From the NCBI GenBank assembly GCA_965279015.1, contig OZ257130.1, forward strand, positions 575,723 to 639,722: a stretch of 64,000 nucleotides of DNA, given 5' to 3'. Position numbers and translations under genes: made by a program. Below, one piece after another: positions 38,071 through 48,266 of the stretch; positions within the stretch are counted from its first letter, which is position 1; every line of letters starts with the position of its first letter. This DNA is from Chitinophagaceae bacterium. GTDB lineage: Bacteria > Bacteroidota > Bacteroidia > Chitinophagales > Chitinophagaceae. Below the pieces are notes generated by a model. It did not search any database, was not told where the DNA came from, and saw only the letters and a list, made by a program, of their open reading frames with translations.

Positions 38071-38886
38071 ATGATGAAGTCTATTGCTGTTGCCTGTATT
38101 GCTGCATTTATCTGTATATCGGTCAATGCCCAGCAAAACACAGGGAAAGTGATTTATTCAAGAACCGTGCAGATGCAGATCCGGTTTTCCGATAGTGAAG
38201 GTGGGGAGGAAAATGTATTGCCCCGTTCACGTACCGATAAGTTTGAGTTATCCTTTGCCAATAATCAAACATTATGGAAACAAATGGAGCAGGAAGAACA
38301 GGATGGCGATATGGCTTTTAATAATAACGGAGGGGGCGGTATGCAGATAAGAATGATCGGTGCCGGCGCTGATGACGTTATGTTTAGTGATCTGGGCGCT
38401 ACCCGTAGAGTTGAGCTGCGCGAACTGGGCACAAAGAAATATATAGTTGAGGACACGATCCGCCGAATGAACTGGAAACTCAGCGATGAAACAAAAACAA
38501 TTCTTGGAAAGGTTTGCCGCAAAGCCCTATCGGAACGTATCGGTACCCGAATGATGATGAATGTGGAAAACGGTAAAATGGAGCGAAAAGAAATTACCGA
38601 TACCTCCAAAATCGTAGCCTGGTTTACTACCGATATACCCGTGAGTACCGGACCGGCGGAATTCCAGGGTCAGTTGCCTGGTCTTATTCTCGAGATCGAT
38701 ATAAATAATGGTCGCACCGTTTACAAAGCACTGGAAATACAGTCTAAAACCGATGTAGCCGCTATTAAGGAACCCAAGGGGTCCAAGAAACTGACAGTTG
38801 CTGAATTCAATAAAGAACGTGATAAAATGATGGAAGAAATGGGTAGAAATAATGGGGGTTCGGGCAGGACAATTCGAATTAATTGA
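38071..38886 (+). CDS. GLPGLI family protein
   Basis: Signal peptide; AWFTTDIPVSTGPAEFQGQLPGLILE. Confidence 0.92.
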   Translation: MMKSIAVACIAAFICISVNAQQNTGKVIYSRTVQMQIRFSDSEGGEENVLPRSRTDKFELSFANNQTLWKQMEQEEQDGDMAFNNNGGGGMQIRMIGAGADDVMFSDLGATRRVELRELGTKKYIVEDTIRRMNWKLSDETKTILGKVCRKALSERIGTRMMMNVENGKMERKEITDTSKIVAWFTTDIPVSTGPAEFQGQLPGLILEIDINNGRTVYKALEIQSKTDVAAIKEPKGSKKLTVAEFNKERDKMMEEMGRNNGGSGRTIRIN

Positions 38887-38906
38887 TATTAAATAAACCG
38901 ATATCT

Positions 38907-38940
38907 GAAGCCGGCTTTTTACGAAGCCGGCTTCTTTATT
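38907..38940 (+). terminator. Intrinsic terminator
   Basis: gaagccggctt...aagccggcttc stem followed by a T-rich tail. Confidence 0.7.
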
Positions 38941-39195
38941 TCGTCGAAAATTTTTTAAAACTCTTTGGATTCAAGAGGTTGATTTGCAGTATATACACTA
39001 GAAATCGTAGATCTACGATATGCGGAAAACCACAAAAAAGCTTGCATTCATCGAAAATGAGCTATACGTTTGTATAGTTGATCAGCTACAAGGTAGCACT
39101 TAATCCAGTTCCAAAATATCCTTATGTAAATACCATCCGACCTTATCCTGAAAAACCATTCGCATCTCGATTCTTTACCCTTTGAAATTGAATGT

Positions 39196-40434
39196 ATGAA
39201 AACGAATGGTACCCTAATAAACATCTTTAAGAGCATCCTTGCTTGTATTTTGCTCTTTATCTCCAGCGATACAATTGCTCAGCGGCTTAGATTTTCAAAT
39301 CCCGTTCTGGAAAGTGGAGTAGCCGGCACCGTTGGTGCAATCTATCGTTTCCCAAGTGTAAGGCAAAATGTGGATGCCCGCATTACCATTATTGATATTG
39401 TTGGAGGTTTGACGTTGACCAATATTGACCGAACTACAGATGGCTTCCAGGAAGCTTTTCAACCTGAATATACTATCCCTGCTTTAACAAATGGATATAT
39501 TGATTTTACGATCACTTTCGTAGTAGCCGGTAGTACCAGAACGCTAAACCAGGGGATATTAGAAGTATCGGGACTTGATATTGATGGACAGACAAGAAGC
39601 GGATTAAGACTTTTTGAATTTAACCGAATTGATATGGGTGGTGGTACCGTAGATTTTGATATGATGGGTGGAGAAATTATGGTAAGTAACCAGGGCACTT
39701 CTTATACTGCTACCAATATTACCGGTACACTCTTCGGATCTTCTGTAGATACATTAGCCACCCAGGTTATGTTTACGGTTAGTAGAAATGCTGTAGGCTC
39801 CTTTTCTTACCGTGTTGGTGCTAATAACTTAACAAACGGTAATGCTAACCGTTACGCAAGTTTATATTTTTCGCCCTTTGTTTATAATAATTCTTTTTTG
39901 TCTTCTAAATCACTGAAAGATTTTAAAGGAGTAAAAAAGACGAATAGTGTTGAATTGATCTGGAGCCTGATTGCTCAGAATGATATTAAGACAGTAGTAG
40001 TAGAAAAAGCAACTACCCCTAACTCGTTTAAATCAATTGGGGAAACCAATAATAACCAGGTCCATTTTACAGATAATAATTTCTCTAGCACCAGTTACTA
40101 TAGATTGAAACTTGTTTCATTCACCGGAGCTGTACAGTATAGTAATATCATTGTGATCCGTGGTGGAACTGCTGCAACTGACAATAGCTTTAAGGTTTAT
40201 CCCAGTGTGATGAGCAGCACCGCTACTGTTTCTGTAAATGCGGTAAAAGGACAGCAAGCTACGCTTCAATTGGTGGATCTGAACGGTCGTACCATCAGCC
40301 AGCAAAATCTTAACCTGCAACAGGGAAGTAATAATCTTTCGATTAATAAGCCAGCTAATATTACTTCAGGTACTTATTTAGCTGTTATTAAAGTGGATGA
40401 TACCATCCAATCACAAAAAATTATGATCCATTAA
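39196..40434 (+). CDS. T9SS type A sorting domain protein
   Basis: Signal peptide, beta-rich body, C-terminal VYPS...LVDLNGR...GTYLAVI...KIMIH. Confidence 0.85.
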   Translation: MKTNGTLINIFKSILACILLFISSDTIAQRLRFSNPVLESGVAGTVGAIYRFPSVRQNVDARITIIDIVGGLTLTNIDRTTDGFQEAFQPEYTIPALTNGYIDFTITFVVAGSTRTLNQGILEVSGLDIDGQTRSGLRLFEFNRIDMGGGTVDFDMMGGEIMVSNQGTSYTATNITGTLFGSSVDTLATQVMFTVSRNAVGSFSYRVGANNLTNGNANRYASLYFSPFVYNNSFLSSKSLKDFKGVKKTNSVELIWSLIAQNDIKTVVVEKATTPNSFKSIGETNNNQVHFTDNNFSSTSYYRLKLVSFTGAVQYSNIIVIRGGTAATDNSFKVYPSVMSSTATVSVNAVKGQQATLQLVDLNGRTISQQNLNLQQGSNNLSINKPANITSGTYLAVIKVDDTIQSQKIMIH

Positions 40435-40505
40435 TTCATAAACGCTTTCAAAGGTTTCCCAGAGCAATTACCGATTCGTTATTCCCAGACCCTTTCTCAA
40501 AAGCT

Positions 40506-40531
40506 AAACCGCAACGTAAGTTGCGGTTTTT
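40506..40531 (+). terminator. Intrinsic terminator
   Basis: aaaccgcaac-gtaa-gttgcggttttt. Confidence 0.8.
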
Positions 40532-40551
40532 GTTATTTGTAGGTATTCCCG

Positions 40552-40584
40552 AGGGTTCCGAACCTTCGAAAGGTTCGGAACCCT
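40552..40584. repeat. REP-like perfect hairpin
   Basis: agggttccgaacctt-cga-aaggttcggaaccct, 15-bp stem. Confidence 0.75.
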
Positions 40585-40608
40585 GCCAAATCAGTTACCA
40601 AAGCTATT

Positions 40609-42651
40609 TTATCGCTTAAACGGCGTATTTGTTATTGAGAAGAATGGTATATCAATAACTACTGAAAAGGTGAATACGCTCTTTGAGTTTACCACGGTAA
40701 ACTCGGTATCGTTAGAGTAAAATAGCTTTGGAGTCATTCGCCAGCCAGGACCAAATGCAATTGGAGTTTTAGGTATAGCAAAAAAAAGTTGAACACCTGG
40801 GGCAAATATGCTCTCTAATCTAACCTCTTGCTTCAATTCCTCATCATCCCCGTTTTTCAACCTATAGGAGGCAATAGAACCTACATCAATGACTGCAACA
40901 AATAGACTCACTGCGCCACCAAATTTTTTAGATAACCCTTTGCTTACTGATATACCAACGGGCGCATATACACCACTTCCTTCGTTAATATCCCATCCAT
41001 AGCCTATATAGCCGTTTACGGAAACATTGAAGAGAGATTTTTGCTTAATGGAATAGCTGCCTGCTGGTAATGCGGCCGCTTCAATGGCATTCTGAACGTC
41101 TTCAGCCGATTCAGCTTTAATAACAGATGCAAAGAAATTACCGTATTTCAAAATGCCTTCAATCACTTTTGGATCCATCAACTTCTTTTTAGCTACCGAT
41201 AGATTCGCTGCCACAATACTGTCTACAATTTTTTTCCCATTTTTAAGCAAATATTGTTTTAGCGACAAATCAGTACTTTTTGCAATGCTATCGGCAATTT
41301 TTGCATAGACTTTTAATGATGCCAGCTCCTCTGTATTGTCGAATAACTCATCGAGAATGTGAAAGAGGTCAGTCACCGCGTTATTATAATTCTTTGTGAA
41401 AATACTTTTATAGAGATCGTTCGAGTGGCGGGCGATAAGAATGTACTTATTGGCATTCAAACCTGGCTTAATTGTATTGGCAACCTTAAAGCCATAATCA
41501 ATAATACTGATAGCTTTATTGATGTACGTATAATAATCTTCATTGGCAAGAGACCCGTTTGGCAGTTTGCTTCTTAAATCAGTAATGGTACGATCAATGT
41601 CGTTTGCAAGCAAAGCGAAATTTTCTACCAAGGAAGCTACTTGAAGTATTGTTCCTTTTAACATAAGACTGTCAACATACTTCTTTACTGTTATGCTCTC
41701 TAAATTCACTGTGAAGGAAATGGATCCAGCCCGTTGATAAAACAGTCCAAGGAAAATGGTTAGTTCAACCCGACTGTTAACAAGTGAATTCAGTTCATCC
41801 AGTTTTATCCAGATATGATCGGCAGAATTACTCCGCAAGGTTTCGGAAATTATATTCAATAATTTCCAGGAGCTACCAAGATTGGGGTGAATTTCCTCCC
41901 ATTCATTCAATGCCGCCAGATGCTTTATCACTAAAGCAGGATTTATATTGTTGTCGGTAGAAGATTGTGATAATTCACTAACAATTTTTACCGATCGTAT
42001 CGCCAATCGAATTTCCGGAAGCTCTTTTAGAAGCTCCTGATATTTGGGTAAGTCAATTAGTTGATCCAATCCAACTATAAGATTTGACAAGTCTTTTTGG
42101 AAAGCTTCGCGCAAACTTTGTATAAGCTCTGCAAAACGATAGGTGGCAATATTCCCAAAAAATTCCGACGTCGCTGGAAACAGTATTTTGCATTCATCGT
42201 GTGAATCCAGAAATTTCTTTAACCGGTTAAAAAATGCAGCGTTTAATTCCTCTTTCCCTCTTTTAATCAAAAAACGGGCAATTCCATCTGCCAGGTTGGA
42301 AATACTGACTGTTGATGGAAGTGATTTGTTCTTTGACCCACCGCTAACCAAGTCTGCGGTGGCTCCGGCCATGAGTGAATCCAATTGAGCACCAATAAAT
42401 ATATTATCCAGGTAAAACGCAAAGATTTGACCCGTCGTTAGAGTATCATCTCGAAATGGTTCCGGTAGATATTCTTTTAGAATAGCAGCTAGTTTCTTAA
42501 TACTTTGCGTATCTTTTTTAAATGAAAATTTTGAGCCTTGTACTTCTATCAGCTCCCGAGTAATATCCTTCGTATCATAATATGCCAATTGAGAATATCC
42601 CGCATTTGCGATAAATAATATTGCAAGAATGGATAAGCAAAAATTTTTCAT
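40609..42651 (-). CDS. Uncharacterised secreted protein (helical body, beta-strand C-terminus)
   Basis: Signal peptide; ATGA overlap with the upstream S8 gene; amphipathic strands after AALPAGSYSIK. Confidence 0.8.
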   Translation of the reverse strand: MKNFCLSILAILFIANAGYSQLAYYDTKDITRELIEVQGSKFSFKKDTQSIKKLAAILKEYLPEPFRDDTLTTGQIFAFYLDNIFIGAQLDSLMAGATADLVSGGSKNKSLPSTVSISNLADGIARFLIKRGKEELNAAFFNRLKKFLDSHDECKILFPATSEFFGNIATYRFAELIQSLREAFQKDLSNLIVGLDQLIDLPKYQELLKELPEIRLAIRSVKIVSELSQSSTDNNINPALVIKHLAALNEWEEIHPNLGSSWKLLNIISETLRSNSADHIWIKLDELNSLVNSRVELTIFLGLFYQRAGSISFTVNLESITVKKYVDSLMLKGTILQVASLVENFALLANDIDRTITDLRSKLPNGSLANEDYYTYINKAISIIDYGFKVANTIKPGLNANKYILIARHSNDLYKSIFTKNYNNAVTDLFHILDELFDNTEELASLKVYAKIADSIAKSTDLSLKQYLLKNGKKIVDSIVAANLSVAKKKLMDPKVIEGILKYGNFFASVIKAESAEDVQNAIEAAALPAGSYSIKQKSLFNVSVNGYIGYGWDINEGSGVYAPVGISVSKGLSKKFGGAVSLFVAVIDVGSIASYRLKNGDDEELKQEVRLESIFAPGVQLFFAIPKTPIAFGPGWRMTPKLFYSNDTEFTVVNSKSVFTFSVVIDIPFFSITNTPFKR

Positions 42652-43778
42652 GGTATTTTAATTTTTGAAATTGCATTATTAATATTTATCAATCCGTATC
42701 CCTGTTTAATATCGAAGCCAGTGTCTGTACCGGTATCGTCGCAACTATTGATCAGAACATCAACACAATCAACAGTCAACTGATGTTTTTTAGCATAAGA
42801 AAGCATCAAAGCCAAACAACCAACCGTGAACGCTGTTGCAATGCTGGTTCCATTTTCAGCTTTTGTCGTTTGACCTATGTTTGTAGTTAACACAGATTTC
42901 CCAGGAGCAAGACATCTTAAATGATTACTCCAATTTGAGAAAGAAACTAAGTTGCCGGATTCATCGAATGCGCCTATAGACAAAAGCCCATTCTTCGCTG
43001 GAAAAGCTGGACTGTAGCATGAAGGAAAAGTATTGCGGTCTGGTGTATTTACACTTGCAGGGTTATGATTGTTGCCAATTGCGCTCACTATAATTTTCCC
43101 TGCACTAACCGCATCTTGAATAGCAGCTTTGAATAATGGATTATCAAGAGTGAAAGAATAGCTGATCGATATAATATCAACTTCTGGCAAAGAAGCTGCG
43201 AAATTAACCGCCCTTGTAAAGCCATCAAAATTTGTTTCACTTTGCTGTGGCGTTGCCCGGAGTATTAAAAGTTTCACATCAGGTGATACTCCAAATACCT
43301 TATCGGTTCCATTGGCACCAATGATGCCAGCCATTCTTGTTCCATGACCATTAATATCTTTTATTTCATTATCACCTAAAAAACTCCTCGAGGAGGGGTG
43401 AATATTTGAAAAGTCATTTCCAGGTTCTATTCCTGTATCTATTAATGCTACAGTAACTCCTTCACCCTTTGTTGAGAGCTCCTGCCATATAAAAGGTATA
43501 TCGAAACGCTTATGTCCCCAACTCATTTTTTCCGGAATGAAATGCGCCGTATCCAATCTCCGTCCGACCAGGGCACCCTGACTTACCCCCCCACTCCAAT
43601 AATAATTATCCGCTTCATCCCTCAGCCATATATCTATATCCCGGAACAAATCTCCTTTATACAATTTACCATCCACTTCAATTTCACTCCCTGGCGCAAT
43701 AAACTGGAAGCAGGGGGCATTCACACTTGGTTTACCCACGCGTACATTCAGGAATTTATCTTTGACTGTTACTTTCAT
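42648..43778 (-). CDS. S8 subtilisin-like serine protease with N-terminal SH3-like domain, no signal peptide
   Basis: Catalytic triad LIDTG / HGT / NGTSIA; N-terminal LNVRVGKPS...W...NYYWSGG. Confidence 0.9.
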   Translation of the reverse strand: MKVTVKDKFLNVRVGKPSVNAPCFQFIAPGSEIEVDGKLYKGDLFRDIDIWLRDEADNYYWSGGVSQGALVGRRLDTAHFIPEKMSWGHKRFDIPFIWQELSTKGEGVTVALIDTGIEPGNDFSNIHPSSRSFLGDNEIKDINGHGTRMAGIIGANGTDKVFGVSPDVKLLILRATPQQSETNFDGFTRAVNFAASLPEVDIISISYSFTLDNPLFKAAIQDAVSAGKIIVSAIGNNHNPASVNTPDRNTFPSCYSPAFPAKNGLLSIGAFDESGNLVSFSNWSNHLRCLAPGKSVLTTNIGQTTKAENGTSIATAFTVGCLALMLSYAKKHQLTVDCVDVLINSCDDTGTDTGFDIKQGYGLININNAISKIKIP

Positions 43779-44983
43779 TATCCTACTCTTTCAATTTTTT
43801 TGACCGTAACTGTTTTCCCTTTGGCTTCATCGGGATTTACAGAACTCCTCAGTTTTATCAATTTATTCAGCAGGTCAAACCAGAAAGGAGCACCAAAGGA
43901 AATAGCTAATGCTGTTAGTATCAGGCCAGGTATATTTGCCATCTTAGGCGTTCCGCCAAGCCCAAGCAAATCATTAACGCTCTTAATTTCTTTATCCATC
44001 ATATCGGTCGCTTGCTTATATAATGAATCAGCCATTTTCTTAGCTTCCGCATACTGGTTCTGCGTTTGGACCAGCGCTTCTTTCTTTTTGGCGGTATCTG
44101 GATTGTTTGTTTTTGTACTTAGCCGGTCAATCTCGGCTCTTGTTTCTTCCAGGTCTTTTACTAAGGTTGGATGAGCCTTAGTATAAGCATCCGCCTGCAT
44201 TACCAGTTGTTCTCTCAACTTAGGATCCCGATGAAGTTTTTTTATAATCGCAAGCGTATCTACATTGAAAAGGCCAGCGATGACCAACCCCAATCCAAGT
44301 GCAATGAGTTTGGTATACTTACGGTACCAGCCCGATGACCGATCCATCATTTCGTCAAACCACTTTTCAATATGCTCCTTGAACCTTTCCACATCGCCTT
44401 GTGCATCCACCCACATGGAATTCAGATACTCCCGGGTTTCACTGTTGAAGGATACCTGATTGTCCCAGGGAAGTGCTGCATTTTCTTTAAGGCTGTTTTC
44501 AATCTCTGTGCGATGACTCTCTCCCGGCTTTACGTTTTTCCCGCGTAATAAATCGATCATCACTTTTGCAAACGTGTCCCGGGATATATAGGAAGGTTTA
44601 GTAACGAGAACATTTGAATTCGAGAGAAATTTTATAAGCGGATGCTTATAAAATACGCTACTTACTTTGTAATTGGGTTGTTGATTTGCTGGGCCTGTTG
44701 CACCGTTTGCATCCTGAGGCACAATAAGTTTTTTCTTTGTCTTATCGGATTTAAATCCATCTGCGATGGTATAAAAGAACCCAAACAGGATATGTTTGAT
44801 TCTACCTTTCCTGGAAAGCCGGATATTATCATCCAGCATCCGGCGTAATGCCAGAAACAGTACCGCTGCCCGAAGCCCAATAAGAACAGCAATGAGTTCC
44901 TGAAGCAGGGTTGCTAATAAACTATATAGTAAATAAATAAAAACCAAACCAATTACTATATCAAGCACAATATTGTTAAACAT
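43778..44983 (-). CDS. Conserved uncharacterised membrane protein (LDxxIGL...HPLI...WFDxxMxR...GAPFWFD)
   Basis: N- and C-terminal TM segments; TAATG overlap with the S8 gene. Start reassigned to 44983 (MFNNIVLD). Confidence 0.8.
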   Translation of the reverse strand: MFNNIVLDIVIGLVFIYLLYSLLATLLQELIAVLIGLRAAVLFLALRRMLDDNIRLSRKGRIKHILFGFFYTIADGFKSDKTKKKLIVPQDANGATGPANQQPNYKVSSVFYKHPLIKFLSNSNVLVTKPSYISRDTFAKVMIDLLRGKNVKPGESHRTEIENSLKENAALPWDNQVSFNSETREYLNSMWVDAQGDVERFKEHIEKWFDEMMDRSSGWYRKYTKLIALGLGLVIAGLFNVDTLAIIKKLHRDPKLREQLVMQADAYTKAHPTLVKDLEETRAEIDRLSTKTNNPDTAKKKEALVQTQNQYAEAKKMADSLYKQATDMMDKEIKSVNDLLGLGGTPKMANIPGLILTALAISFGAPFWFDLLNKLIKLRSSVNPDEAKGKTVTVKKIERVG

Positions 44984-45285
44984 ATAGATAGATTTAGTAT
45001 TACTTTTCTCACCATTCTTCAACCGTACAACAAAACGCTTTTCAATGTTATAGTAATTCATGAGTTACCCTGAATTGGGTAGGGGAAACTCAAACACTAT
45101 TCAGTTTAGGGTAAATAGTAAAAAAGAATAAAAACAACTTTGTAAAGATGGGTAACCGCCTAATTTAATTAAGCAGTTTATTTACGGGATTTTCAACCGT
45201 TATTTCACGGGGTAGTGATTTAGACGTAAAAAAAAGGTGTATAGAAAACATATTAGCTTACTTAAATATAATCCAAAAATAAAAC

Positions 45286-45319
45286 TTCACCCATACTACT
45301 ATGTGGTAGTATGGGTGAA
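45286..45319. terminator. Perfect 14-bp hairpin (terminator or REP-like)
   Basis: ttcacccatactac-tatgtg-gtagtatgggtgaa, downstream of the barrel gene. Confidence 0.65.
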
Positions 45320-45446
45320 ATGAAGTGTAATAACAGGAATTCAGACTAGCTGGTAGCTAAATAAAGGTAACCATCTAACATTCTAATTATCGATGATTAA
45401 ACCTTTATCCGGAGCGATATTAATTTTAAAGGAGTAATTTTCTTGT

Positions 45447-48266
45447 TTAGCGCATTATCATCCTTGCCCCACCTGCGCTTCCCTGCCCCAACCCATTCTT
45501 ATTCAAACTATAGGTGAAACTCAGCAGGAAGAAGCGCTGCAGGTTGCGCTGGCGGATATCCTCAACGTAGTTTTGGTTGCTGTTACGACTAACCCCCACG
45601 TTCTTGTTCAGCATATCATAGGCTTTTAATTTCAGTTCTCCTCGATTGAACCGAAGGAATTGTTTACTGATACTGGCATTCCAGAAGGGAACTTTTGCAT
45701 TAAAACCATCAGACAACTGGTTATTGATAGTATAAACAAATTCGGTAGCGAAGAAAAAGTTCTTCGGTAATTGCCAGTCGAAGTCCGTAGTGTAATGCTG
45801 CGATAAATATTCAACATCACGGGCAGAAGAAAGCGTATAATTCGTTTTGTTGTAATTTATCCCACCGCCAACGGATAAATTCGCTTTTTCTCCTAAACGC
45901 AGGTCTAACCGGATATCCGGACCGGTACTGAACGTATTACTTGTATTTTCCTCCCCGTTTACAATTTGCTTATTACGGAAATAACCTGCGTTATTACTGA
46001 TATTGATTGTTCCCTTAATAGAAGTTATGGGAAATCCGAAACTGATATCTCCGTTCAGATTATAAACCCCGTTTACATTAACCGGGTGAGTGGTTTTAAT
46101 ATTGCCGAAATACACATCGTCGTTTACGATCTTATTATCCGTTTTAATCAGGTTGAGGAACATAAAAAGATTCCTGTTCTTGAAAGGGTTGATGCTGGTG
46201 AATTGCATTCGCATGATATGACTGAATTCCTGATCGAGACCCGGATTACCGATTTTTATATTAAGCGGATCGCTGTTGTCGGGTACAGGTTGCAATTGCG
46301 AAGGTGAAGGTTGATTGGTATTGGTAGCATAATTGACTACCAGACTACGATATCGTGTAAAATTATATTGCAGTCGCGCATTTGGCAACAGGTTATTGTA
46401 TTTTTTGTAGATAACGGAGTCTTTGATTCCGGAAATAATTTTCCCTTCCAGTTCTGCTTGTTGCCAGCTTACTCCCAGCGAATAATTATATTTCTTTTTT
46501 TGCGTACGGAGTCGCAGACCTGCCTGCAAATATCCATAGGTATTTTCATAGTCGTTGGTCAGTAAATTATTTAAATCATCGTATTTGCCGTTCTGCTTGT
46601 TATAGTCAAAGGTTTGTTTTTCCGCGATGCTGCGGGTATTGCTTTTACTGGTGCTAAGTTCTATCAGCGATCGTTTGAAAATCGGTTCGGTATAAGCTAT
46701 TCGTGCCGTATAGCCATTCAGGTCTCCATTGGTGTAATAGCGTTGATTGATAGAATCGGTACGCTGGAGAGCACCATTCAAATGATTATAAAATTTATTG
46801 ATCGACTCCAGGCTTCCTTCTCCATCGGTACTATTGATGCTATTCTGCAAACTAAGAGAGAAGGTGCGACCCTTGCGTCTGAATTTTTTCCGGAACAACA
46901 GATCATTCCTGAAATTAAACCCTCTATTGTTTCCCAAATTACGACTTACCCCTTCAACACTTTGCTGTTGGAGATCCGAAAAGTTTCCATAGTCCGAATA
47001 AGAACTGGTTTTTGCATCCTGATAGCCAAAAGAAGGAGTTATTTTGAGCGAATGAAATGAATCGATAATAATATCCGCGTTCAGGTTGAGCCGATGGCTA
47101 CCCGTAATATTATCTGTATAAGAATTCTGTTTGGAAAAATAAGTGGAGTCGGGTAAAAAGTATTGCCGCTGAGAATGAGATTCGGTTTGAGGATTATAAC
47201 GGCTGTAAAAATAATTGCTCTGGAAATCGGTTTTCTTCCCAATGATATTATTATAGTTGATTCCGCCCGCCTGTGTTGAAGTAATACCATTGTTGTTTCC
47301 CCCCATTCCACCCATAGCGGAAGCATCATTGCCACTCACTGTAATATTTATATTTCCTCCGCTGCCGCCCTGGCGAAGCCGATTGAGTTCGCCACTGAAA
47401 TTAAGCATGTCAAAAAAGGAGAATCCCTCCGCGTTGTCGTTATTGGCCATACCGATAGCGGAGAACTGGCGGGCTCCTTTAAACGAATTTACATTGAAGC
47501 GCCCTTCGTACCGATCTTCGGTACCGCCACCAGCCATTGCTTTACCAAACAATCCTTTCTTTTTGTCTTTTTTTAATTTGAGGTTGATGGTTTTTTCACT
47601 GTTCCCATCATCAAAACCGGTCAATTGTGCCTGGTCGCTCTGGCGGTCATAAACCTGCACTTTATCCACTGCATCAGCAGGCAGGTTACGGGTAGCAATC
47701 TTCGGATCATTGCCAAAAAACTCCTTTCCATCTACCAATACTTTATTTACCTTCTCGCCCTGCGCTTTTACTGTTCCGTCCTTTTCCACTTTAACACCCG
47801 GCAACTTTTTCAACAAATCCTCTACACTGGCATTGGGTTGTACTTTAAAGGAACCCGCATTATATTGAATGGTATCCGCGATCATGGTTACCGGTGGAGC
47901 TTCGGCCGTTACTACTACTTCAGCTAATACTTTGGCGGCATCATGAAAAACAAGGTTACCGAGATCAACTTCCTTCTTATTATCTGTAATGCTGAAATAT
48001 TTATTGCTGTTGTGGTAATTCACATGGGTGATAAGAAGCCGGTAATCACCGTTAGCAAGCCCGCGCATTTCAAATCGACCGTTATTATCCGTCATGGAAA
48101 ATGATACCAGGGAAGAGTCTTTACGTTGCAGGATGGTGAGCGTGGCCCCTCCTACCGGTTGTTTAGCCAGCGTATCCAGCAACAGGCCTTTTATAGAACC
48201 ATTCTTTTGGGCCGATGCGCCCAGGGAAATAATAACCAATAAGAGCAATGAGTAAAAATATTTCAT
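45447..48266 (-). CDS. Outer-membrane beta-barrel protein with N-terminal carboxypeptidase-regulatory-like domain (TBDR-like)
   Basis: Signal peptide, EDLLKKLPGV, LVDGKEFFG, C-terminal FLLSFTYSL. Confidence 0.88.
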   Translation of the reverse strand: MKYFYSLLLLVIISLGASAQKNGSIKGLLLDTLAKQPVGGATLTILQRKDSSLVSFSMTDNNGRFEMRGLANGDYRLLITHVNYHNSNKYFSITDNKKEVDLGNLVFHDAAKVLAEVVVTAEAPPVTMIADTIQYNAGSFKVQPNASVEDLLKKLPGVKVEKDGTVKAQGEKVNKVLVDGKEFFGNDPKIATRNLPADAVDKVQVYDRQSDQAQLTGFDDGNSEKTINLKLKKDKKKGLFGKAMAGGGTEDRYEGRFNVNSFKGARQFSAIGMANNDNAEGFSFFDMLNFSGELNRLRQGGSGGNINITVSGNDASAMGGMGGNNNGITSTQAGGINYNNIIGKKTDFQSNYFYSRYNPQTESHSQRQYFLPDSTYFSKQNSYTDNITGSHRLNLNADIIIDSFHSLKITPSFGYQDAKTSSYSDYGNFSDLQQQSVEGVSRNLGNNRGFNFRNDLLFRKKFRRKGRTFSLSLQNSINSTDGEGSLESINKFYNHLNGALQRTDSINQRYYTNGDLNGYTARIAYTEPIFKRSLIELSTSKSNTRSIAEKQTFDYNKQNGKYDDLNNLLTNDYENTYGYLQAGLRLRTQKKKYNYSLGVSWQQAELEGKIISGIKDSVIYKKYNNLLPNARLQYNFTRYRSLVVNYATNTNQPSPSQLQPVPDNSDPLNIKIGNPGLDQEFSHIMRMQFTSINPFKNRNLFMFLNLIKTDNKIVNDDVYFGNIKTTHPVNVNGVYNLNGDISFGFPITSIKGTINISNNAGYFRNKQIVNGEENTSNTFSTGPDIRLDLRLGEKANLSVGGGINYNKTNYTLSSARDVEYLSQHYTTDFDWQLPKNFFFATEFVYTINNQLSDGFNAKVPFWNASISKQFLRFNRGELKLKAYDMLNKNVGVSRNSNQNYVEDIRQRNLQRFFLLSFTYSLNKNGLGQGSAGGARMIMR

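Follow-up and report, generated by a model that had tools for sequence, protein, structure and literature searches.

A leaderless S8 protease between an unnamed membrane protein and an exported partner: a candidate envelope module in a Chitinophagaceae bacterium

The locus and its closest described systems

The closest described systems to the locus reported here are the holin-endolysin(-spanin) cassettes and their cellular counterparts, the type 10 secretion systems (T10SS), such as Serratia ChiWXYZ, Salmonella TtsA, the Yersinia entomophaga lysis cassette and C. difficile TcdE (PMC9527704, PMC10847048, PMC13284979). The locus was found in a stretch of 64,000 nucleotides (nt) of a Chitinophagaceae bacterium (GenBank assembly GCA_965279015.1, contig OZ257130.1, positions 575,723 to 639,722), called the window below. 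It consists of three minus-strand genes, A, B and C, which encode a predicted membrane protein, an S8 subtilase and a large exported protein. The best explanation of the data is that this operon is a Bacteroidota-specific version, with a protease and an outer-membrane partner, of a widespread and unnamed two-part module. Judging from the sequences compared, the constant part would be A, an inner-membrane protein with three transmembrane (TM) segments, and the variable part an envelope-degrading enzyme made without a signal peptide, which would be linked to A by a co-inherited N-terminal SH3b-like tag or by direct fusion to the A tail. The parts of the operon are listed below; L-numbers denote the homologous loci that were compared, and L085 and L086 are metagenomic contigs of close relatives from the same genus with the same neighbouring genes.

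43778..44983, minus strand: gene A, 401-aa predicted inner-membrane protein of the unnamed GAPFWFD family, without family or PDB match
42648..43778, minus strand: gene B as a whole, 376-aa S8 subtilase
43572..43778, minus strand: residues 1-69 of B, N-terminal SH3b-like tag, kept together with A (91-95% amino acid identity to L085 and L086)
42648..43571, minus strand: residues 70-376 of B, linker and S8 catalytic domain, part of the swapped cassette
40609..42651, minus strand: gene C, 680 aa, Sec-exported by a signal peptide, part of the swapped cassette

As in holin and T10SS cassettes, the gene for a membrane protein directly precedes that of a wall-degrading enzyme without a signal peptide, and the module is chromosomal and accessory. 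One component may be assigned to each envelope layer: A to the inner membrane, the tagged enzyme to the wall and C probably to the outer membrane. The adjacency to a signal-less wall hydrolase is seen family-wide (GH25, GH46, Amidase_2+GH19 and an amidase named as such in RefSeq), whereas the partner in the window is a protease. Several differences were also observed. With 401 aa, A is larger than holins (~60-220 aa) and has a large predicted cytoplasmic domain and a predicted periplasmic hairpin. It showed no homology to holin families by Pfam, PHROGs, NCBIfam or PDB fold and is essentially absent from phages. The cargo of A modules includes proteases and lipases and not peptidoglycan hydrolases alone; it carries a co-inherited tag or is fused to A, and there is no spanin. 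A may form a membrane hole, as holins do.

The S8-PTS (Li, Tan & Zhang 2022, PMC9424270; Mwangi et al. 2025, bioRxiv 10.1101/2025.07.24.666436) likewise places an S8 peptidase beside a protein with a signal peptide, in cassettes that are exchanged between related strains. B of the window differs in lacking a signal peptide and in having an SH3b-like N-terminus, a 3-TM partner (A) and a diderm host from the Bacteroidota. The S8-PTS toxin is composed of a signal peptide, BetaH and a variable C-terminal toxin, and is followed by an immunity gene; C has neither a toxin domain nor a variable C-terminus, and no immunity gene is present, although BetaH was not searched for directly.

The CdiA-CT/CdiI and Rhs-CT/RhsI systems share with this locus a constant N-terminal part, a sharp recombination boundary, and a divergent C-terminal enzyme domain with an equally divergent downstream gene, the counterparts of the boundary in the window being codon 66 of B and a point 27 nt after C. 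Unlike these systems, the locus has no known secretion-system trafficking domain, its downstream gene encodes a 680-aa exported protein instead of a small immunity protein, and its S8 catalytic domain is not strictly inherited along with C. The catalytic domain of B aligned over its full length, with an intact triad, with the intracellular subtilisins (ISPs) and subtilisin Carlsberg. B lacks an I9 propeptide, as ISPs do, and is distinguished from both by the SH3b-like N-terminus, the coupled membrane protein and the secreted partner. As to gasdermin-protease pairs, no gasdermin fold was present among the listed best PDB and BFVD fold matches of C, none of which was significant.

A constant membrane protein with exchangeable partners

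Genes A and B overlap through TAATG (43780-43776) and genes B and C through ATGA (42651-42648). The open reading frames (ORFs) thus bear out the initial annotation, which had described three translationally coupled genes with these two signals. Comparison with the close relatives showed that the operon is built from parts with different histories. The flanking outer-membrane protein was 96% identical at the amino acid level in L085, and identities to L085 and L086 were 87-93% for A and 91-95% for the tag. The corresponding values were 24-25% for the S8 catalytic domain, 38% for B as a whole and 29-30% for C. At the DNA level, a similarity of 85-89% extended from upstream through A to position 43582, which is codon 66 of B and the end of the tag, and was then lost. 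Homology restarted at 40582 in L086 (27 nt past the C stop codon) and at 40534 in L085. The closest relatives of the S8 domain and of C, with 55% identity each, were found in a Flavisolibacter locus with the order A-GH25-S8-C. A further genome of the same genus displayed an empty site, with 260 nt at the place where the window has positions 38874-45447 and with the flanking genes kept. No flanking repeats or target-site duplication were seen around this 6.6-kb island.

The start of A was placed at 44983 because this Met is invariant in 18 homologues, nearly all of which begin there, even though the first ATG is at 45061. The protein has hydrophobic segments at residues 1-50, 223-248 and 349-372, separated by soluble stretches, and carries the GAPFWFD motif. 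Sequence and structural model (predicted local distance difference test, pLDDT, 65.6) together gave the following architecture: TM1 with an amphipathic helix (1-50), a soluble region of ~170 aa (~50-222), TM2 (223-248), a helical hairpin of ~100 aa (~250-345), TM3 with GAPFWFD (349-372) and a basic tail ending in RVG. The count of Lys and Arg residues beside the TM segments suggests, by the positive-inside rule, that the loop at ~50-222 and the tail would be cytoplasmic and the hairpin periplasmic. Among the 18 sequences, which share 45-87% identity, 60 columns were invariant.

For A and C nothing significant was found in Pfam, NCBIfam, PADLOC or PHROGs, the weak matches being coiled-coil noise, and their sequence profiles had no match in the PDB. 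The model of A had no significant PDB match by Foldseek, and a literature search on the motif APFWFD found no paper. Homologues of A are nevertheless numerous: more than 2,038 were among the matches listed, all of them unnamed, and of 600 candidate stretches taken from contigs of one genome per species, 568 proved to contain A, so that at least 568 loci exist. These loci belong to Bacteroidota, Acidobacteriota, Pseudomonadota, Gemmatimonadota, Nitrospirota, Ignavibacteriota, Actinomycetota and Cyanobacteriota, some loci from metagenome-assembled genomes (MAGs) being possibly mis-binned. The carriers are mainly Chitinophagaceae, Cytophagales and other Bacteroidota. The distribution is patchy, as A was found in 33 of the 151 genomes sampled from the window's own family (22%). 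A phage origin of A was ruled out by its near-absence from virus data, with no match in 50,697 phage genomes and two among 2.9 million viral contigs.

Two further observations concern the family of A. On the A tree described below, L020 (Cyanobium MAG) and L066 (Limnohabitans MAG) nest within Bacteroidota clades, and L066 pairs with Algoriphagus, both having a YdjC partner; either the whole module was transferred between phyla or the contigs were mis-binned. In at least six loci (L013, L024, L032, L039, L054 and L067; also in L090, from Caballeronia) a NarL/LuxR-type response regulator or a LuxR-family regulator lies directly upstream of A, often divergently, which suggests that many A modules may be under two-component control.

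The partner enzymes were compared in the best 80 of the at least 568 A loci. Right after A (gap of -10 to +25 nt) there is very often a gene for a hydrolase without a signal peptide. At such close gaps the partners were S8 proteases, GH25 muramidases, GH46, Amidase_2+GH19, YdjC deacetylases, GDSL esterases and DUF900 hydrolases. Untagged loci, in which the gap is slightly wider, had patatin and Tle1-like phospholipases, alpha/beta hydrolases, an M19 peptidase and a papain-like C1 peptidase, and no signal peptide was seen in the N-termini checked (Tle1-like, patatin, C1). RefSeq naming is in good agreement with this pattern, placing an N-acetylmuramoyl-L-alanine amidase 2 nt after a Caballeronia homologue of A and a cell wall hydrolase beside a Rhizobium homologue. 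The partners target wall, lipid or protein; no nuclease or NADase was seen among the ~80 loci, and the muramidase and lipase partners come without immunity genes.

The partner class was followed on a maximum-likelihood tree of 88 A sequences. At least 27 changes were needed, against a minimum possible of 12, and the patatin, Tle1, C1 and GH25 partners lay within tight A clades. By these sequence comparisons the module is modular, with A and the SH3b-like tag as chassis and the enzyme as exchangeable head. Separately, L012, L032 and L038 have SH3b-tagged partners of ~298-299 aa that by BLAST are unrelated to the equally long GH25 partners. The L012 member of this cluster had no Pfam match, and these partners may represent an undescribed enzyme family.

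B is predicted to be an active S8 protease. Pfam Peptidase_S8 (PF00082) matched residues 105-362 (7e-36, 124.4 bits against a cutoff of 21.8), and the triad (D114, H145, S312) and the oxyanion residue N236 are intact. The N-terminus has no hydrophobic segment, no signal peptide and no prodomain. The nearest solved relatives were subtilisin Carlsberg, which aligned over residues 102-369, and the intracellular subtilisins. Three other assignments of B were examined and rejected. The top NCBIfam match, to the mycosin of the type VII secretion system (TIGR03921), reached 133.7 bits against an equivalog cutoff of 278.75, and B has neither the signal peptide nor the C-terminal TM anchor of a mycosin. 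An ISP-type inhibitory N-terminal motif in the linker was discarded, the alignment giving just the ordinary start of the mature domain. The match to phrog_3677 proved to be generic S8 similarity to Bacillus and Lactococcus phage peptidases, confined to the catalytic domain. In PADLOC-DB 2.0, B matched a generic subtilase model alone (6e-20), and A and C gave nothing significant. As a side observation, the SH3b-tagged S8 partner of L017 (8148-9215, Chitinophaga hostae) has a degenerate triad, with Gln for Asp and Lys for His, and is followed by an unrelated 643-aa signal-peptide protein in place of C; it is possibly a pseudo-protease variant.

The SH3b-like domain occupies residues 14-69 of B. 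The copy in the window was below threshold (E = 0.58 against SH3_5), but in the tag family (n = 27) five members matched Pfam SH3_3 (best 1.2e-4) and four matched SH3_5 (best 5.5e-5); the domain is probably a true SH3b relative. A profile of the first 70 residues of B detected the tag in 30 of 84 loci, and within these 15-kb loci no gene other than the one or ones immediately after A carried it. In the 5.5-Mb genome of the window A, the tag and C are each single-copy, and the tag adjoins A. Across loci, the identity of A correlated strongly with that of the tag (Spearman 0.80), while the values were 0.02 for the S8 catalytic domain and 0.17 for C. Two classes of A tail were distinguished, (K/E)RVG with S8-type tags and EEAVG with GH25/GH46-type tags.

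The distribution of C was evaluated with hidden Markov models (HMMs) built for this analysis. Homologues were present in 17 non-duplicate loci, the window included, and always directly after a protease gene, which itself lies directly after A or after A and a GH25 gene. The genes of these A-S8-C and A-GH25-S8-C arrays overlap or nearly abut, and their flanks are unrelated between loci. In Puia and another genome (5.3 Mb), for instance, where A is 47-48% identical, the order is A, S8 and a protein of 661-725 aa, with different flanks. In L062, L077 and L029, A continues past GAPFWFD through a Pro-rich linker into a trypsin-like domain of ~300 aa with the His, Asp and Ser motifs of that fold (SCWHVLK ... 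GDSG), and in L062 and L077 the gene after the fusion is a C homologue with a signal peptide. The fusions imply that the enzyme would work while physically attached to the tail of A. Since C follows these trypsin-like domains as well as S8 enzymes, it goes with the protease, of either fold, and not with A as such. A different arrangement was seen in L008 (2810-5610), where A is followed by a signal-less papain-like C1 peptidase and then by a protein of 621 aa that weakly matches transthyretin-like and alpha-2-macroglobulin MG3 domains, which hints that this large partner may sense or trap the protease.

C has a signal peptide at residues 1-20, followed by a nearly invariant Q21. The AlphaFold model (pLDDT 73.6) consists of an all-alpha body (121-512) and a beta domain (539-677), joined by a hinge (511-536) that is of low confidence in the model and carries the invariant residues L528, P529, G531, S532 and K536. 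The strands of the beta domain are long and amphipathic, with 14% aromatic residues. No Pfam match was obtained for the isolated beta tails of 10 homologues, and the whole model had no significant match by Foldseek against the PDB and BFVD. In the model the tail weakly resembles a small outer-membrane barrel, and C is probably anchored in the outer membrane by this domain. The C-terminal region is conserved among homologues, not variable, and holds no recognisable toxin domain.

With regard to the individual proteins, these data agree with the initial annotation, which had described a GAPFWFD protein with TM helices around a soluble domain, a subtilase with a complete triad and an SH3b-like N-terminus that lacks signal peptide and prodomain, and an exported last gene product with a helical body and amphipathic C-terminal strands. 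It had also proposed that the neighbourhood of the GAPFWFD family be examined for conservation; co-occurrence was strong, with A-S8-C or A-GH25-S8-C in at least 17 loci. The idea of a functional unit survives, because the genes do co-occur and A and C belong to no characterised family. Its interpretation was supported in part; it overlooked the modular build of chassis and enzyme and the association of C with the protease.

A possible gate mechanism and competing explanations

By analogy with the enzymes that depend on phage holins, the partner enzymes would most likely reach the envelope on command. A would keep the enzyme on the cytoplasmic side of the membrane and, on a trigger, would open or breach the inner membrane in the manner of a holin gate. 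The enzyme would then enter the periplasm, where its SH3b-like domain could bind peptidoglycan. In the window the enzyme would be the S8 protease B, and its dedicated partner the Sec-exported C, whose beta domain probably anchors it in the outer membrane. B would most likely cut C, perhaps at the conserved hinge, and the outcome would be a controlled breach of the envelope, by which the cell lyses itself or releases its contents. A role in conflict, with phages or between bacteria, is suggested by the patchy distribution and by how rapidly the S8 catalytic domain and C are swapped. Of the readings considered, such a gate fits best, because the membrane protein is conserved, the leaderless, envelope-attacking enzymes are tagged or fused, the tags are of a wall-binding type, the distribution is patchy and enzyme turnover is fast. 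That A would station leaderless enzymes at the membrane and control their passage to the envelope, here for a wall-tethered protease that works with an outer-membrane partner in conflict or lysis, is put forward tentatively, as a plausible reading that falls short of probable.

Both hypotheses of the initial annotation can be related to these results. A non-Sec export route for a cell-wall-binding protease is in line with what is seen across the family, where signal-less hydrolases of wall, lipid or protein come after A. A protease-gated membrane toxin or defence system gains no more than indirect support from the patchy distribution, the cassette swapping and the rule that C follows a protease.

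Several observations weigh against the gate mechanism. A is a strongly conserved protein of 401 aa without homology to any known holin, and S8 proteases are not peptidoglycan hydrolases. The tail of A, and hence the fused proteases, are predicted from sequence to be cytoplasmic while C is exported, so that a meeting of B and C depends on a breach or crossing of the membrane. The identities of the S8 catalytic domain and C correlated weakly (Spearman 0.29), and between L001 and L003 C was 51% identical and the S8 domain 26%. Because the two are not strictly co-inherited, a specific enzyme-substrate pair is weakened, as is the idea that C serves the S8 domain as a strictly cognate substrate or immunity protein. 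The Gly at the end of the A tail, present in 32 of 34 loci with a tagged partner and in 11 of 51 without one, speaks for the mechanism, but these counts are not corrected for shared ancestry. When run against 1.8 billion representative proteins, the tag profile also retrieved ordinary multi-repeat SH3b proteins, and for this reason the tag may simply be a peptidoglycan- or wall-binding domain and not a docking tag. Finally, the Foldseek matches of the beta tail of C (PagP, OpcA, OmpA and phage 'OMP beta-barrel' proteins) were all non-significant.

Alternatively, A could be an inner-membrane translocon and C the outer-membrane part of a non-lytic secretion route, by which the tagged protease, and elsewhere lysozymes or lipases, are exported against bacteria or prey. 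This is an unlikely account, although non-lytic export that depends on holins has precedent (PMC9527704, PMC13284979). The muramidases, amidases and phospholipases of the partner repertoire would suit antibacterial effectors, the carriers are mostly Bacteroidota, the helical body of C is of periplasmic size with a barrel-like tail, and a periplasmic hairpin is predicted in A. However, no immunity genes lie beside the muramidase and lipase partners to shield the producer from its own enzymes. C occurs with proteases and no other cargo and so cannot be a general outer-membrane conduit; A is also present, without C, in loci binned to Actinomycetota and other phyla; and a barrel of ~140 aa is too small for a folded protease. 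A toxin-maturation scheme of the S8-PTS kind would instead make C a Sec-exported pro-toxin or bacteriocin that is processed by B outside the cytoplasm, with A as the exporter of B or a protective membrane protein. It draws on the Gram-positive pairing of an S8 peptidase with a signal-peptide toxin that is activated by cleavage (PMC9424270; bioRxiv 10.1101/2025.07.24.666436), and would accommodate the constant position of C after a protease, S8 or trypsin-like, the invariant residues of its hinge, and the swapping of C and the S8 catalytic domain between near-identical backgrounds, as in polymorphic toxins. It is nonetheless distinctly unlikely: B lacks the signal peptide of a secreted S8-PTS peptidase, the conserved C-terminal region of C holds no recognisable toxin domain, no immunity gene is found, and the many A loci with lysozyme or lipase partners and no C would be left unexplained. 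If C were a protease-activated toxin, S8-dependent toxin maturation would be extended to diderm bacteria.

A system that acts from inside the cell was also considered, with A as membrane sensor or pore-former, lipases working on the inner leaflet and the protease on A or on C before its export, as in gasdermin-protease pairs, so that the infected cell is killed. The patchy, accessory distribution of A, the empty site, the exchange of effectors on a constant chassis and the proteases fused to a predicted cytoplasmic tail would all suit such a defence. The Tle1-like and patatin lipases could act from the cytoplasm, and patatin is a known effector class of CBASS (cyclic oligonucleotide-based antiphage signalling systems). 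We regard it as quite unlikely, because muramidases, amidases and SH3b wall-binding domains have no cytoplasmic substrate, nuclease and NADase effectors were not seen, PADLOC gave no significant match for A or C and just the generic subtilase model for B (6e-20), and the PDB and BFVD fold matches listed for C showed no similarity to gasdermins or other known pore-formers. Housekeeping remodelling, in which A would be a scaffold regulating the turnover of wall and outer-membrane proteins in the manner of FtsEX-EnvC and the lack of signal peptides would be misleading, is highly improbable. The strong conservation of A (60 invariant columns in 18 sequences), the predicted periplasmic coiled coil, as in other hydrolase regulators, and the NarL/LuxR-type regulators that adjoin A in several loci would fit this role. 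They are outweighed by the occurrence of A in just 22% of the genomes of its own family and its absence from a genome of the same genus, by the free exchange of partner enzymes, phospholipases among them, and by the radical difference of B and C between near-identical strains.

The gate mechanism bears on two open problems, namely how wall hydrolases, lipases and proteases without signal peptides get to the envelope when no phage lysis is involved, and how bacteria lyse or release their contents on command. The module is a tractable and very widespread candidate for both, having a conserved membrane chassis, an exchangeable enzyme head and a simple tag. If the gate model is true, a non-phage family would be added to machinery of the holin/T10SS kind, hundreds of 'hypothetical' operons would be explained, and the tag could be used for routing enzymes. 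In a wider form, the GAPFWFD family would be an undescribed cellular, non-phage envelope system in which A recognises an address tag, the SH3b-like domain matching its Gly-ended tail, and delivers leaderless enzymes to the wall compartment; S8 and C would be a fast-diversifying arm that attacks the outer membrane, and the whole a programmable lysis or export device in Bacteroidota and at least seven other phyla. This extended claim is doubtful.

The island and its flanks

The remaining features of the locus are listed below.

38874..45447, no strand: presence/absence island of 6.6 kb, with A, B, C and a convergent 412-aa gene
45284..45321, minus strand: hairpin that terminates the upstream OMP_b-brl_3 gene and delimits the operon on its 5' side
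45274..45281, minus strand: candidate -7 promoter element TAttTTTG, the sole TAnnTTTG upstream of A, 291 nt before the start codon
44984..45061, minus strand: extension of the A ORF from the upstream ATG at 45061, 26 codons, not conserved, probably 5' leader rather than coding
40552..40584, no strand: perfect palindrome with 15-nt arms, 25 nt past the C stop codon
40506-40529, both strands: bidirectional terminator after the palindrome
39196-40434, plus strand: 412-aa gene with a sub-threshold Por_Secre_tail match, convergent to A-B-C

TAnnTTTG is the -7 promoter consensus of Bacteroidota. The leader before A (44984-45283, ~290 nt) contains a single such box and is 85-89% conserved in the relatives. 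No Rfam RNA was found in the 6.6-kb island or in the A leader. At the other end of the operon, no further gene lies between the C stop codon and the terminator. The arms of the palindrome at 40552-40584 are AGGGTTCCGAACCTT and AAGGTTCGGAACCCT; homology to the close relatives restarts exactly there, and the palindrome could be a terminator or a recombination landmark.

The operon adjoins genes with OMP_b-brl_3, Por_Secre_tail and GLPGLI matches, in agreement with the surroundings of type IX secretion system (T9SS) and beta-barrel genes that had been described for it. It had been taken to interrupt this neighbourhood, a view that overlooked that the gene with the T9SS tail lies inside the same island as A, B and C. 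The Por_Secre_tail match of the 412-aa protein reached 25.7 bits, just below the Pfam cutoff of 27, and no other domain was recognisable in it. No linkage between this gene and the A-B-C module was observed in other lineages. It was present in both L085 and L086 and missing from the empty site of the same-genus genome.

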